Shown here: in pieces, positions 39,038 through 60,865 of the stretch | Numbering within the stretch: position 1 is the first letter of the stretch | How the letters are laid out: each line of letters begins with the position of its first letter | DNA from: an uncultured Erysipelotrichaceae bacterium | GTDB lineage: Bacteria > Bacillota_I > Bacilli_A > RF39 > UBA660 | Length of the DNA: 64,000 bases | Assembly: GCA_902764545.1 (NCBI GenBank) | Contig: CACWWC010000004.1 | Coordinates: 1,746 to 65,745 of the forward strand | Direction: 5' to 3' | Program-made: the position numbers and the translations under genes | Notes under the pieces: model-generated | The model's input: only the letters and a program-made list of their open reading frames with translations | Database searches by the model: none | Told to the model about the DNA's origin: nothing

Positions 39038-39112
39038 TGGAGCGAATGAGGGGAATTGAACCCCCATCACAGCCTTGGCAAGGCCGTATTCTAACCATTG
39101 AACCACATTCGC
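39038..39112 (-). tRNA. tRNA-Gly (anticodon GCC)
   Basis: The reverse complement gcgaatgtggttcaatggttagaatacggccttGCCaaggctgtgatgggggttcaattcccctcattcgctcca folds as a cloverleaf with an encoded CCA. Confidence 0.9.
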
Positions 39113-39117
39113 ATACA

Positions 39118-39191
39118 TGGAGGGGCCTACCGGATTTGAACCGGTGATCAGGGTGTTGCAGACCCACGCCTTACCACTTGGCTAAAGCCCC
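39118..39191 (-). tRNA. tRNA-Cys (anticodon GCA)
   Basis: The reverse complement ggggctttagccaagtggtaaggcgtgggtctGCAacaccctgatcaccggttcaaatccggtaggcccctcca has a 7-bp acceptor stem, a T-loop ggttcaaatcc and an encoded CCA. Confidence 0.9.
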
Positions 39192-44549: not shown

Positions 44550-45156
44550 ATTAACCTTCATAATTGTTTGGCGATCAATATAGTAAACTTTGAGCCTTAG
44601 GTCAAGTAGGATTTCCCTAATTCTTACATGTTCGTTACCAAACATGCGGTTCCCCTTTAAAAGAATTAATATGCCGTCACCGAACTATACGACTTGATTA
44701 CCACTTAGTGCCCACTGCAATCCTATAATGAAGTACACCCTAGGAGATTTCCTCTCCAATCCTTTATTATTAATCCTTTTTTGCAAAAATAATTTCAAAA
44801 TGCAATATTTAATTTGAGTGGCCGCTCAAAAAAAATAAGATCACTTATCCCAATATTTTCACTCAAGACAGGCTACACTGCACATAGCTTTCGCCACAAT
44901 ACAGGTTTTATATCCTATTTCGTAACAAATCATCAGTAGTTATTAGTTGATTTGCCACAAGAATAGGTCTCCACGAATTGTGGGTCGATATCTCGTATGC
45001 CGTTACGAGTTGCCCAGAATTCTCATCTCCAGCATCCACCCCAAACTGGGCGTAAGAAGCAGACACCAAAGGTTTCACAGATATGCCCTTTAACGAATTT
45101 TTAAGCTCGTCTTCCTAATAAAGTAATTGACTAGAATAATGTGCCATCAATTACTT
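44525..45156 (-). ncRNA. large structured non-coding RNA candidate (about 630 nt; OLE-like by length and synteny)
   Basis: No ORF of 60 aa or more on either strand. G+C is visibly higher than the flanks (for example 25/60 in 44941-45000). It has its own consensus promoter and terminator and many local hairpins. Confidence 0.55.
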
Positions 45157-45160
45157 GTTA

Positions 45161-45189
45161 ATTATATCACTTTTTTTCATATTTGTCAA
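45161..45189 (-). promoter_or_regulatory. consensus extended -10 sigma-A promoter of the ncRNA
   Basis: The minus strand reads TTGACA, a 17-nt spacer, then TATAAT, with the spacer ending in TGa to give TGaTATAAT. Confidence 0.75.
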
Positions 45190-58249: not shown

Positions 58250-59247
58250 TATTTATCACCATCTTTATATATTTGACTTATGATTTCTTCTAGAGGAATA
58301 TTTGATATATTAATATCAATAATGTTGTCTATGTTAAGTAGATTTATAGCATCAGATATAGTTTTCTTTTTTAAATCAACTTCTAATTTTAAATTATAAT
58401 CTTTATCCTTTAAAATATTAATTCCTTCTACATCGTCAAGGTTAACTTTTTCTTTCATTTTAACATCGATTATTTTTTTATTAAGATAATGATATTTCAA
58501 ATTATCCATAGTATCATCTAATACAATTTGTCCCTTATTAACAATTATTACTCTTTTGCATAATTTTTCAATATCTGATATATCATGAGATGTTAAAACT
58601 ACTGTTGTCTTGTACTCTTTATTCATTCTCTTTATTAAAGTTCTAATTTTTTCCTTAACAACAGGATCTAGTCCAATGGTTGGTTCATCTAGAAATAATA
58701 TTTTAGGTTCATGTATCAGTGATGCAACTATTTCACAACGGATTCTTTGACCTAAGCTTAAGTTTCTAACTGGTGTATTTATAAATTCTTCTAATTCAAA
58801 TAATTCTCTTAGTTCTTCTATTTTCTTTTCTACTATAGATTCTGGAATATCATATATTGCTCCAAAAAACTTAAAATTGTCATATGGAGTTAAATGTGTC
58901 CACAATTGTTCTTTCTGACCAAAGACACATCCAATTGAATAAGCAAGACGTTTTCTATCTTTACTTGGGTCAAGTCCCAATATATCAATTGTTCCATTAT
59001 CTGGAAATAATATCCCTGTCATCATCTTTATTGAGGTTGACTTTCCTGCTCCATTTGGTCCAATAAATGCAATTATTTCTCCTTTATCTACTGAAAAAGA
59101 AATATTTTTTACAGCTTTGATGATATTATATTTTGGCTTTATAATGGACTTTAGGCTTCCTTTTAATCCTTTTTCTTTTACTTTAACTTTAAATACTTTT
59201 GATAACTTTTTTACTGTTATTACTGCCATACTTCCAACTCCCTTCAT
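58249..59247 (-). CDS. ABC transporter ATP-binding protein (DrrA-like, with a C-terminal extension)
   Basis: Walker A 'GPNGAGKST', signature 'LSLGQRIR' and Walker B 'LFLDEPT'. Confidence 0.85.
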   Translation of the reverse strand: MKGVGSMAVITVKKLSKVFKVKVKEKGLKGSLKSIIKPKYNIIKAVKNISFSVDKGEIIAFIGPNGAGKSTSIKMMTGILFPDNGTIDILGLDPSKDRKRLAYSIGCVFGQKEQLWTHLTPYDNFKFFGAIYDIPESIVEKKIEELRELFELEEFINTPVRNLSLGQRIRCEIVASLIHEPKILFLDEPTIGLDPVVKEKIRTLIKRMNKEYKTTVVLTSHDISDIEKLCKRVIIVNKGQIVLDDTMDNLKYHYLNKKIIDVKMKEKVNLDDVEGINILKDKDYNLKLEVDLKKKTISDAINLLNIDNIIDINISNIPLEEIISQIYKDGDK

Positions 59248-59300: not shown

Positions 59301-59394
59301 AAAAACACGATGTGACTATTAAAAAATAGTGACTCCGTGTTATACGTGTAGGATTATTTCCCTATGTAGCTCGTTTCCTTATACATACTCACTT
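59301..59394 (-). promoter_or_regulatory. riboswitch-like leader element, copy B (three-stem element plus terminator)
   Basis: The roughly 68-nt element at 59327-59394 is nearly identical to copy A. Its 3' arm can instead pair into a terminator (59301-59340) followed by U6. Confidence 0.55.
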
Positions 59395-59418
59395 AAATCT
59401 ATGAAGATTTTGGTCGAG

Positions 59419-59520
59419 AAAAAAATACGGAATACACTACTAATATGATTAGTAGTGACTCCGTATTACGTGTAGAATTATAAATTCCTATGCAGCTCGT
59501 TTCCTTATGCATACTCACTC
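59419..59520 (-). promoter_or_regulatory. riboswitch-like leader element, copy A (three-stem element plus terminator)
   Basis: The element at 59452-59520 is followed by a 10+6-bp terminator hairpin (59426-59466) and U7 (59419-59425). Confidence 0.55.
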
Positions 59521-59532
59521 GACTTGTTTTAG

Positions 59533-59561
59533 ATAATAACATATTATTTTGTTATTGTCAA
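59533..59561 (-). promoter_or_regulatory. extended -10 promoter of the leader/exporter operon
   Basis: The minus strand reads TTGACA, a 17-nt spacer, then TATTAT, with TGt immediately before the -10 hexamer. Confidence 0.7.
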
Positions 59562-59572
59562 CTATTTTTTGT

Positions 59573-60232
59573 TTACATATAATATTGATTATTATTCATT
59601 TTTAGTTGTTGTATCAAGTATTCATCATTTTTATAATACATTTGTTCTTTTGTATTTGGTATATCATTTACACCTTTTTTGAACATTTTTTCATAATAAT
59701 CAAATAATTCTTTAAATCTAGCGTAGTGAATTATTTCTCTTTGTCTTAGCCATATTAAAGGCCCTATTACATCTGGATCATCTGTTAAGTCTATTAAATT
59801 TTCATAAACTGCTCGTGCTTTTTGCTCTGCAGCCATATCTTCTGAGATATCAGCTAGTGGATCTCCTGTTGTTGCGAAATAAGCAGTTGTAAATGGTACT
59901 CCATTGGCATCTGTTGGAAACAGACCTTTCGCATGTTCTGCATAGTGTGTATCTAACCCAGCTTCTTTGATTTCTTCTAATGTTGCATCTTTCATTAGTT
60001 GGTGAATCATTGTTTCTAACATTTCAACGTGTCCTAATTCTTCTGTTCCAATGTCATTAAGAAGCGCCCTTCCCTTATCATCTGGCATTGACATCCTTTG
60101 ATTTAAATATCTTAGCGCAGCACCTAATTCTCCATTGGCACCACCATATTGTGTTACTAGATATTTTGCCATACGTAAGTCTTTCTTTTTAATATTTACA
60201 GGATACTGTAACCTTTTGTGATAACTAAACAT
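59573..60232 (-). CDS. cotJC: manganese catalase-family spore coat protein CotJC
   Basis: 'YPVNIKKKDLRMAKYLVTQYGGANGELGAALRYLNQR' and 'EELGHVEM' are the ferritin-like di-metal motifs typical of CotJC. Confidence 0.85.
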   Translation of the reverse strand: MFSYHKRLQYPVNIKKKDLRMAKYLVTQYGGANGELGAALRYLNQRMSMPDDKGRALLNDIGTEELGHVEMLETMIHQLMKDATLEEIKEAGLDTHYAEHAKGLFPTDANGVPFTTAYFATTGDPLADISEDMAAEQKARAVYENLIDLTDDPDVIGPLIWLRQREIIHYARFKELFDYYEKMFKKGVNDIPNTKEQMYYKNDEYLIQQLKMNNNQYYM

Positions 60233-60653
60233 TTCTATCCTCCCATGGCCATTTATCTGATTCCCAGGTAAATGATTTATTCATTTCTTCACTATTTATG
60301 TTTAATGGTCCATAGTTTCGCTCATATTCCTCTATCAATCTATTAGCTTGTTTTTGGTAATCCATAAATAACATAAACATACTTCTATCCTCTGGGTGCA
60401 TATCAAGATATAAATTTAAATCATGTGCTGCAAAACAAATTGCTGATAGCTCATATAATTTTCTTTCTTGAGCATTTTTAGGTTTTAATTTTTCTGGTGA
60501 ATAATCCTTATATTGACTATATAGATTTTTAAACATATTTCCTTTTTCAAATCCTTCTTGCGGATTAAACAAGTCATTCTCATATGGATTATTAGTATAA
60601 TTATTCATATAAGCATTATTTCTAAACCAGTCATAATTTATATAGTTATTCAT
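60225..60653 (-). CDS. cotJB: spore coat protein CotJB
   Basis: 'LYELSAICFAAHDLNLYLDMHPED' and 'YERNYGPL'. It overlaps cotJC. Start set at the ATG after AGGGAG. Confidence 0.75.
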   Translation of the reverse strand: MNNYINYDWFRNNAYMNNYTNNPYENDLFNPQEGFEKGNMFKNLYSQYKDYSPEKLKPKNAQERKLYELSAICFAAHDLNLYLDMHPEDRSMFMLFMDYQKQANRLIEEYERNYGPLNINSEEMNKSFTWESDKWPWEDRNV

Positions 60654-60788
60654 AATATCTCCCTTCAAATTAATGTATTCTGGTCATTTATAACTAATAA
60701 GGACATGCGCCCATTTTTTTATAAAAAAATAAAATAATACTTGTCAAATGTATCTTTTGTTGATAAAATAATCTTGTGTTTTTGAAAT

Positions 60789-60865
60789 GGCGCCGTTGGT
60801 GAAGTGGTTAACACGCTAGTTTGTGGCACTAGTATGCATGAGTTCGATTCTCATACGACGCCCCA
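60789..60865 (+). tRNA. tRNA-His (anticodon GTG)
   Basis: Extra 5' G(-1) opposite C73, anticodon loop ttGTGgc, T-arm atgagttcgattctcat, encoded CCA. There is one C-A mismatch in the acceptor stem. Confidence 0.85.

Follow-up and report, generated by a model that had tools for sequence, protein, structure and literature searches.

The leader of an ABC-2 (ATP-binding cassette) exporter operon on the minus strand of a 64-kb stretch of DNA from an uncultured Erysipelotrichaceae bacterium (contig CACWWC010000004.1; this whole stretch is called the window below) contains two copies of an RNA element that is a four-helix junction of about 66 nt, with helices P1 to P4, and each copy is followed by an intrinsic terminator of its own. 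The element is likely to be a cis-acting sensor with a small-molecule ligand, an antitermination (ON) device in which the effector stabilises the read-through state. It probably represents an orphan riboswitch class, undescribed so far; the fuller proposal, an undescribed class whose ligand no known riboswitch senses, is more tentative and is given slightly less than an even chance. The traits by which riboswitches are recognised, namely a conserved and covarying aptamer and a sense location in 5' leaders, were both found, as was the mutually exclusive expression platform that marks a terminating, ligand-ON riboswitch. Ligand binding by the element is suggested by the anatomy of the leader.

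All leader coordinates are window positions, and the two units and the parts of their aptamers are as follows (J, joining strand):

59519-59419 (minus strand): unit A, made up of the 66-nt aptamer A (59519-59454) and then a long hairpin with U7 at 59425-59419
59519-59515/59458-59454 (minus strand): P1 of aptamer A, AGUGA/UCACU, with G59514 as J1/2
59513-59508/59494-59489 (minus strand): P2a of aptamer A, followed by an internal loop of UAA (59507-59505) opposite GAGC (59498-59495)
G59504-C59499 (minus strand): P2b of aptamer A, with a GAAA loop
59488-59483/59479-59474 (minus strand): P3 of aptamer A, followed by J3/4, ACA (59473-59471)
59470-59468/59464-59462 (minus strand): P4 of aptamer A, followed by J4/1, GAG (59461-59459)
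59393-59300 (minus strand): unit B, made up of the 66-nt aptamer B (59393-59328) and then a hairpin with U6 at 59305-59300
59393-59389/59332-59328 (minus strand): P1 of aptamer B, with G59388 as J1/2
59387-59382/59368-59363 (minus strand): P2a of aptamer B, followed by an internal loop of UAA (59381-59379) opposite GAGC (59372-59369)
G59378-C59373 (minus strand): P2b of aptamer B, the P2 cap
59362-59359/59353-59350 (minus strand): P3 of aptamer B, followed by ACA (59349-59347)
59346-59344/59338-59336 (minus strand): P4 of aptamer B, followed by GAG (59335-59333)

The aptamer parts of the two units are about 85% identical. An original prediction, made from the letters of the window without database searches, had described two near-identical elements here, and both are present, at most 1-2 nt from where it had placed them. 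Much of its description of the fold also holds, including a P1 that pairs AGUGA with UCACU, a 6-bp P2 stem in both copies, a P3 whose sequence differs between the copies while the pairing is retained, and a compensatory change in P2 (C59509-G59493 in A, U59383-A59367 in B). Other details had to be revised. The 13-nt P2 loop UAAGGAAACGAGC, said to be invariant, is identical in both window copies but not across the family, and it is really an internal loop, with UA(A) on its 5' side and (G)AGC on its 3' side, closed by a mini-hairpin that varies across the family and is G-GAAA-C in the window. The joining strand ACACGUA..CGGAG contains the fourth helix, P4 (CGU/ACG).

Both copies belong to a large family. 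A scan of one genome per species, in which the search pattern was anchored in P1 and the junction strands, returned at least 118 stretches, with matches in Clostridium tagluense A121 (L024, L037), C. bowmanii DSM 14206 (L044), C. senegalense JC122 (L053), C. rhizosphaerae (L051) and many metagenome-assembled genomes (MAGs) from the gut, the latter labelled as Bacilli, Erysipelotrichaceae, 'Mycoplasma'/Tenericutes, Bacillota or Clostridia. A metagenome scan with a second pattern, in which P1 and the 3' half were unconstrained, returned at least 120 contigs, with human gut, bioreactor and activated sludge among the sources. When built on 102 unique copies, a covariance model recognises about 165 copies in the genome loci among the matches listed and exactly two sites in the window, scoring 65.3 bits for A and 72.1 bits for B. 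A same-strand open reading frame (ORF) lies within 500 nt of 160 of 164 copies, and the orientation is always sense.

Across the family, P1 reads (A)GUGA/UCAC(U), one G joins it to P2a, which has 6 bp, and P2b forms a cap that varies in length and sequence. The U-A on the 5' side and the A-G-C on the 3' side of the P2 internal loop are near-invariant; the loop takes the form UAA/GAGC in 61 of 102 copies, both window copies included, and UAU/UAG or UA/AAG in the others. A UAA/GAN tertiary motif of internal loops, in which 5'-UAA-3' stands opposite 5'-GAN-3' with Watson-Crick pairs on the flanks, was reportedly described by Lee, Gutell and Russell in 2006. P3 directly abuts P2 and has a G-U opening pair in all copies, while P4 opens with C-G and ranges from 2 to about 8 bp in length; it is missing entirely from four metagenome copies (ACACG-GAGUCAC) and is therefore dispensable. 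The junction strands, that is, the single G, the ACA after P3 and the GAG before the 3' strand of P1, are invariant.

The covariation that the original prediction had looked to homologues for is there: P2, P3 and P4 show strong covariation that clearly exceeds both the shuffled and the slid controls. In a MAFFT alignment of the 102 unique copies, 94.3% of the cells are paired and 15 pairs show double changes, and the covariation score of 0.348 compares with 0.129 for shuffled alignments (reached by 0 of 500 shuffles) and 0.04-0.09 for slid controls. Another alignment, which comprises 48 sequences and includes every copy that was not pattern-selected, has 95.7% of its cells paired, again 15 pairs with double changes, and a score of 0.497 against 0.171 for shuffled and 0.04-0.14 for slid controls. 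P2 is 100% paired in this second alignment, with two to five pair types at 6 of the 7 P2 pairs; the exchanges include U-A/G-C and G-C/A-U, and the 6th pair changes from U-A to G-C in 15 sequences. Given no prior structure, RNAalifold recovered P1, P2a, P2b, P3 and P4. A proposal that 'type 2' copies (GG at J1/2, C before P3, A-U in P4) form a variant of altered specificity was rejected: the differences are compensatory changes, from U-A to G-C at the 6th P2 pair and from G-C to A-U in P4, and these copies therefore belong to the same class as the standard ones.

The direction of control can be read from the two terminators, which share sequence with the aptamers:

about 59467-59424 (minus strand): stem of intrinsic terminator A, with U7 at 59425-59419; its 5' arm consists of the P4 3' strand, J4/1 and the P1 3' strand
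59341-59304 (minus strand): stem of intrinsic terminator B, with U6 at 59305-59300; its 5' arm consists of the same three parts of aptamer B

Both terminators of the original prediction, with their U6 and U7 runs, are present; it had them form by pairing of the P1 3' strand with downstream sequence. The minimum free energy (MFE) fold of leader A (-32.2 kcal/mol, z = -4.5 versus shuffles) has the terminator formed and P1/P4 open, and that of leader B (-20.7 kcal/mol, z = -2.3) has the terminator formed and P1 open; forcing P1 costs about 18 kcal/mol in A and about 11 kcal/mol in B. The same platform recurs in the 164 copies in genome loci among the matches listed. A hairpin with a U-run follows within about 60 nt in 156 of them, with a median of -18 kcal/mol, and in 137 of these 156 the 5' arm of the terminator incorporates four or more of the five nucleotides in the 3' strand of P1, in most cases along with GAG and the 3' strand of P4. 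P1 is retained in none of the 156 MFE folds of aptamer plus terminator, its 3' strand lies inside the terminator in 135, and forcing P1 costs a median of 11.5 kcal/mol over the 156 leaders.

There is no separate antiterminator, as P1 and P4 compete directly with the terminator. The terminator is the thermodynamically preferred fold and the default state is therefore OFF; whatever holds P1/P4 closed during transcription gives read-through. This agrees with the ON-switch logic proposed originally, given that the terminator fold is dominant and the P1 3' strand is common to both states. The anatomy of the leader points to an effector as the agent that stabilises P1/P4. During transcription, such an effector, most likely a small molecule, would bind the junction and keep P1/P4 closed until RNA polymerase has cleared the U-run, which would turn expression on. 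Both units would have to be read through, so that expression of the exporter would need two successive binding events, and two such events in series would lower the basal level and give a steeper response.

The tandem arrangement is a recurrent one. Among the matches listed, the genome loci contain 30 tandem pairs with gaps of 40-170 nt, of which 27 precede an ABC-2 ATPase gene; 22 pairs consist of two standard copies and 8 have a GG/C variant first. Orthologous operons with the motif encode ATPases that share between 93% and 45% identity with that of the window; the tandem is retained from 93% to about 78% identity, and the link between motif and operon down to 45%. The close homologues of the ATPase (88-93% identity, annotated 'MAG: Bacilli bacterium') all have a two-unit leader, with a differing upstream gene. 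Units A and B keep their own flanks in relatives and their P2 caps diverge independently, and the duplication is therefore old and maintained. Furthermore, each unit has its own terminator, so that the leader contains two complete switches in series and not a cooperative double aptamer of the glycine type.

A comparable arrangement has reportedly been described by Welz and Breaker in 2007 for Bacillus anthracis tenA, which is preceded by two thiamine pyrophosphate (TPP) riboswitches that are complete units in tandem. As in that case, the window has two full aptamer-plus-terminator units of one class, from which independent decisions and a more switch-like response would be expected, and by this analogy two copies in series would sharpen the response. 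Unlike the tandem TPP riboswitches, however, the aptamer class in the window is uncharacterised, its units are of the ON type so that the series would act like an AND requirement, the tandem is kept across many species of one operon family, mixed tandems exist, and each unit has a clamp helix. The mixed tandems (L025, L038, L039, L042, L054, L059 and L097) consist of a sequence variant and then a standard copy 40-170 nt further on. This variant has GG after P1, an AGAUA/UAUCU P2 and an A-U-rich P4, and it usually begins 6-8 nt past a TATAAT box; when single, it precedes uncharacterised proteins of 130-270 aa. A Spo0A_C-like identity for the proteins after variant copies found no support in Pfam.

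Several elements of the leader lie outside the aptamers, among them the promoter and the strands of two clamp helices, P0 and P0':

59561-59533 (minus strand): sigma-70-type promoter, with TTGACA at 59561-59556, a 17-nt spacer and an extended -10 element, TGtTATTAT, at 59541-59533
59523-59518 (minus strand): P0 5' strand, GUCGAG, which overlaps the first 2 nt of P1 and pairs with CUCGAC at 59418-59413
59418-59413 (minus strand): P0 3' strand, CUCGAC, immediately past the U-run of terminator A and present in read-through RNA only
59404-59395 (minus strand): P0' 5' strand, UCAUAGAUUU, just 5' of aptamer B, with its partner at 59266-59257
59285-59267 (minus strand): box TATAATGGTTTTGATGATA, conserved in relatives and enclosed by P0', past terminator B and ahead of the P0' 3' strand
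59266-59257 (minus strand): P0' 3' strand, AAAUCUAUGG, about 13 nt 5' of the ribosome-binding site (RBS)

The promoter that the original prediction had named is found as it was given, with 11 of 12 hexamer positions matching the consensus in addition to the TG extension, and it lies 12-14 nt upstream of unit A. The transcript probably starts about 7-10 nt past the -10 box, ahead of the P0 5' strand. TTGACA and extended -10 boxes occupy the equivalent position in the relatives L001, L004 and L007. About 70 nt of leader separate unit B from the RBS.

Each of the two clamp helices has one aptamer-plus-terminator unit inside it, and their formation is possible only in read-through transcripts. P0, which encloses aptamer A and terminator A, is partly present in the MFE fold, and it occurs in other leaders of the ABC operon as the variants AGUCAAG/UUUGACU and AGUCGAG/CUCGGCU (G-C to A-U and G-U). 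P0' covaries in relatives, where it is formed by CAUAAACUA/UAGUUUAUG (L001), UAUAGAUU/AAUCUAUA (L066, L040) and CAUAAGUUU/AAACUUAUG (L072). A family-wide outer helix P0 was not supported, its mean length being equal to that of the shuffled control; both clamp helices are lineage-specific traits of leaders before the ABC operon. Possible roles include insulation of the two units, protection of the mRNA 5' end or a third element of control. Among relatives with the P0' helix, the box enclosed by P0' is kept in at least 13 at species level, in the form TATAAT(A/G)GTTTTGATGAT; it may belong to the transcribed leader or act as an internal -10-like box with an operator.

With regard to known RNA families, the original prediction had been unable to assign the element to a class, and a search of the 4227 models of Rfam 15 likewise matched no family to it. 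At the gathering score, no family was returned for the leader motif in the window; at E<=10, the leader gave only chance microRNA and small RNA (sRNA) matches (E = 3.7-9.9), and eight GC-richer representatives had no match on the motif at E<=5. Elsewhere, these scans did detect OLE, tRNA, T-box, NiCo, c-di-GMP-I and cobalamin elements. Full-text literature searched with gene-association and method terms and with literal strings such as CGGAGUCAC yielded no description of the element, with subscription journals and supplements lying outside the search, and no matching motif was present in the 50-genome and 26-genome surveys of intergenic regions by GC content (GC-IGR). The spermidine riboswitch was discarded as a match, since it is a variant of the S-adenosylmethionine (SAM)-I riboswitch. 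A T-box leader was also discarded, as the leader has no match to RF00230, although the same scans find true T-boxes in related loci.

The known riboswitches most similar in function differ from the element in fold. The guanosine tetraphosphate (ppGpp) riboswitch, ykkC subtype 2a, is of the ON type and acts via an intrinsic terminator (Sherlock et al. 2018, PMC6003355). It is mainly tied to branched-chain amino-acid and glutamate synthase genes, and 12 of 105 sorted representatives lie upstream of operons with a natA-like ATPase and COG3694 and COG4587 permeases (PMC6003355). The window leader resembles it in ON-type control through an intrinsic terminator and in the layout of one ATPase and two permeases, which here are of the PF06182 type. 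In contrast, the leader has no ykkC (RF00442) match even at E<=10, the motif is a four-helix junction of about 66 nt and not a ykkC fold of about 100 nt, and the family is mainly tied to acetyltransferases of the GNAT family and exporters. Seven distant orthologous ABC operons (from Pseudoclostridium, Methylomusa, Metabacillus, Paenibacillus, Sporomusa and Halanaerobiales) have neither ykkC nor the motif upstream. The COG3694 and COG4587 permeases are probably of the PF06182 type; should this COG-to-Pfam mapping hold, the ppGpp riboswitch would be the sole validated riboswitch known for this transporter family.

The guanidine-IV (mepA) riboswitch and its variant Gd4v are ON switches in which the terminator is part of the sensor, and they control efflux pumps and GNAT N-acetyltransferases, Gd4v being an orphan that is enriched in gut metagenomes (Lenkeit et al. 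2022, PMC9788692). The motif shares with both the ON control of pumps and GNATs and the participation of the terminator in the sensor. Gd4v was nevertheless rejected as its identity, as the fold of Gd4v consists of two hairpins with a loop-loop pseudoknot, as opposed to a four-way junction with competition between P1 and the terminator. Moreover, Gd4v is found mainly with a transaminase and MATE pumps and not with ABC-2 exporters, and the motif has no Rfam mepA match. SAM-I and NiCo riboswitches, like the motif, have four helices that emanate from a conserved junction and a P1 coupled to the terminator, but they have no sequence, helix lengths or conserved positions in common with it, and neither model matches any motif site scanned, while a bona fide NiCo riboswitch was found by the same scan elsewhere in L041 (952-1045, plus strand). 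The motif is also much smaller than both, and its P4 can be absent. Other known riboswitches in related loci are a cobalamin riboswitch in L253 (715-896, minus strand) and a c-di-GMP-I riboswitch in L051 (4091-4174, plus strand), the latter right after a major facilitator superfamily (MFS) gene that is controlled by the motif.

The genes under control were characterised by clustering and annotating the first same-strand ORF past each copy, with the following counts for the genome loci among the matches listed:

46 loci: ABC-2 ATPase of the window type
about 35 loci: GNAT acetyltransferases, in at least 5 clusters (Acetyltransf_3, Acetyltransf_1, FR47, a fusion of HD and GNAT, and others)
7 loci: MFS pumps, weakly TetA(P)-like
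3 loci: nucleoside phosphorylase-like proteins (PNP_UDP_1)
3 loci: methyltransferases
3 loci: peptidases of family S51
2 loci: peptidases of family S66
single cases: NUDIX, nitroreductase, metallo-beta-lactamase (MBL), aminotransferase, and glutaminyl- or glutamyl-tRNA synthetase (GlnRS/GluRS)

Among the metagenome contigs listed, 69 ABC-2 ATPases and about 26 GNATs are first genes. In the genome loci, the families that recur within 3.5 kb of the motif are transporter genes, GNATs, S51 peptidases, a methyltransferase and MFS pumps. The nearest solved relatives of the commonest GNATs are SpeG or diamine acetyltransferases and AAC(6'), at only 1e-8 to 1e-17. The S66 peptidase encoded in L025 (4131-5201, plus strand) resembles MccF and MccC and not LdcA: its closest matches are B. 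anthracis 'MccC family' and MccF peptidases, at 1e-105 to 1e-36, among them the B. anthracis 'MccC family protein Ba3275' at 1e-105 and MccF microcin C immunity proteins at 1e-39, against only 3e-14 for LdcA, a muramoyl-tetrapeptide carboxypeptidase.

The common theme of these genes suggests modification and export of a compound, most simply one that bears an amine. The signal would then be a toxic compound, amine-bearing or nucleotide-like, that is acetylated or cleaved and then pumped out, because the controlled genes are exporters, GNATs, MccF-like and S51 peptidases, and enzymes that act on nucleosides or nucleotides. Classical immunity to aminoacyl-nucleotide antibiotics of the microcin C type consists of an efflux pump, a GNAT of the MccE/RimL type and the MccF peptidase. 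All three types of gene occur in the gene set of the family, an analogy that provides a lead and not a result. If the ligand is a harmful compound of this kind that the cells encounter in the gut, candidates include microcin C-type aminoacyl-nucleotide antibiotics, polyamines or diamines, and a nucleotide alarmone.

Two further contexts of the motif were observed in related loci. Past the motif in L043 (6906-7718, minus strand) and L059 (5909-6709, plus strand) are proteins with a helix-hairpin-helix domain like that of the RNA polymerase alpha C-terminal domain (alpha-CTD; PF03118, E about 1e-7), which may be regulators in the same regulon. In L071 (1132-4898), as well as in L064, L111 and L121, the motif lies between a T-box-controlled unit of NUDIX and methionyl-tRNA synthetase (MetRS) genes and a short hydrophobic ORF, of about 29 codons from an internal ATG, which is followed by a truncated LeuA-like (HMGL) gene; this context may represent a small biosynthetic cluster. 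A tandem of the motif with a T-box before leuA, an arrangement known for ppGpp riboswitches, was rejected, because the T-boxes belong to the upstream NUDIX-metG unit.

A number of observations weigh against a small-molecule ON sensor. In function, the controlled genes form a loose set; GNATs and exporters are of a generic kind, and no single ligand is indicated. Several of the distant orthologous ABC operons are without such a leader, and an obvious terminator is missing in a few copies (L051, L056, L120 and L126). Both collection scans used fixed sequence patterns, so that the sampled diversity is biased. The isolated aptamers are no more stable than shuffled sequence (z = -0.8 and -0.6), and the evidence for the aptamer is therefore comparative and not thermodynamic. 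Within that evidence, P1 rests on complementarity and one or two rare double changes, not on real covariation: in the metagenome sample in which P1 was unconstrained, its four inner pairs, GUGA/UCAC, are identical in about 105 of 110 unique copies. The GAG joiner is likewise invariant in this sample (L128-L247), the outer P1 pair varies (A-U, G-U and U-A in this sample; C-G also occurs), and a double change is seen in the genome copy of L042 (AACGA/UCGUU). As P2-P4 covary freely in the same sequences, the inner P1 bases are constrained in sequence, perhaps through direct read-out or through their alternate pairing with the terminator. Lastly, the effector could be a macromolecule.

This last alternative, in which a protein or another macromolecule binds the junction and blocks termination with the same fold and the same competition between P1 and the terminator, is the foremost of the rival explanations, though an unlikely one. 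Protein-dependent antitermination has precedents in the ribonucleic antiterminator (RAT) sites of LicT and SacY and in the ANTAR, HutP and PyrR systems, and direct read-out of the sequence by a protein would likewise fix the inner P1 and the junction and let the other helices covary. A multimer could occupy two copies in series, and some variants precede uncharacterised proteins, two of them with the alpha-CTD-like domain. However, no recurrent candidate gene for an RNA-binding regulator is present within 3.5 kb of the motif in 117 loci, and the family spans Clostridia and several lineages of Bacilli with very different neighbour genes. The known targets of protein-dependent antiterminators are simple hairpins or repeats, whereas a junction of several helices, with joiners that are single-stranded and conserved, is characteristic of metabolite aptamers. 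A still less probable explanation is that nothing is sensed, the units being constitutive attenuators or stability elements, or their terminated transcripts of about 100 nt being small RNAs. Strong, thermodynamically dominant terminators would fit such a role, as would P0 and P0' if they stabilise the 5' end of the read-through mRNA. Against it, a conserved junction of four helices whose joiners do not vary would be superfluous in a plain attenuator, P1 and terminator overlap in most of the terminator-bearing copies (137 of 156, as given above), and the association with export and modification genes, which form a coherent set in distant taxa, speaks for regulated read-through.

Ribosome-mediated attenuation, in which stalling on a leader peptide would select terminator or antiterminator as in antibiotic-inducible leaders, has very little probability, and the leader has no conserved ORF. 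Genes of the exporter and resistance type are often controlled in this way, and a 47-codon ORF (59542-59399) overlaps unit A; this ORF, however, begins inside the -10 element, upstream of the likely transcript start, without an RBS, and is not kept in relatives that retain the RNA structure, where covariation preserves base pairs and not codons. A dispersed mobile repeat that happens to fold, similar to a miniature inverted-repeat transposable element (MITE) or a repetitive extragenic palindromic (REP) sequence, is effectively refuted. Copies are numerous and occur in many genomes, in some cases two or three to a contig, and the original prediction had itself named a dispersed repeat at unrelated positions as the outcome that would speak against it. 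Instead, the two copies in 64 kb are both in one leader, copies are always in sense to the downstream gene, show compensatory changes and have a terminator each, and, apart from the functional helices, no inverted or direct repeats flank them. Pattern scans of the viral and plasmid collections likewise returned no copies of the motif (0 matches in the viral collection). The small-molecule ON sensor thus remains the favoured explanation of the leader.

Downstream of the leader, the operon and its surroundings in the window are organised as follows:

59244-59238 (minus strand): RBS, AAGGGAG, preceding the ABC ATPase gene
59229-58249 (minus strand): ABC-2 exporter ATPase gene, from its likely ATG at 59229 (MAVITV..., 326 aa as in homologues; the mechanical ORF start is 59247)
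58249-57458 and 57474-56680 (minus strand): two ABC-2 permease genes, PF06182
56586-54283 (minus strand): three further genes, encoding a protein of 218 aa (no family), DUF5662 (193 aa) and a protein of 317 aa (no family)
54309-54283 (minus strand): terminator closing the unit, just ahead of the ClpB promoter

The original prediction had the switch control a pump and three downstream genes of unknown function. The motif does head the exporter operon, but the last three genes may escape its control: a weak AU-rich hairpin with a U-run at about 56650-56615, past the second permease gene, makes their co-transcription uncertain. No solved relative of DUF5662 was found. In the contigs of the close ATPase homologues mentioned above, GNAT acetyltransferases, with or without DUF5662, follow the permeases, and the 218-aa protein of the window is not a diverged form of the GNAT that relatives encode there. 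The clpB gene (54222-52099, minus strand) has a perfect TTGACA-16-TATAAT promoter at 54255-54228, right after the terminator of the six-gene unit. Directly upstream of the leader are the cotJB-cotJC spore-coat genes (59573-60668, minus strand), with the same synteny in L007 and several relatives. Elsewhere, the window contains three tRNA genes (39041-39191, minus strand; 60790-60862, plus strand) and a full-length OLE RNA (44552-45163, minus strand; 400.9 bits against RF01071), a known family that places the organism among the anaerobic Firmicutes.

Riboswitch classes with hundreds of representatives are now rarely found, and orphan classes have repeatedly exposed new biology, as was the case for guanidine, fluoride, ppGpp, phosphoribosyl pyrophosphate (PRPP), Li+ and Na+. 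The candidate class described here is abundant in Firmicutes of the human and animal gut, including cultured Clostridium species. The identity of its ligand would name the substrate of a common, uncharacterised family of ABC-2 exporters (COG4586-type ATPase, PF06182 permeases) and assign a function to many genes annotated as 'GNAT family', and it might reveal a natural RNA that senses a toxin or an antibiotic. The homotypic and mixed tandems, together with the clamp helices, offer a natural system for studying the dose-response of serial riboswitches. Should both the class and its ligand prove to be new, this RNA would govern, as its master switch, a detoxification regulon that many gut Firmicutes possess, and the window would show the class in its most elaborate form, with two switches in series.

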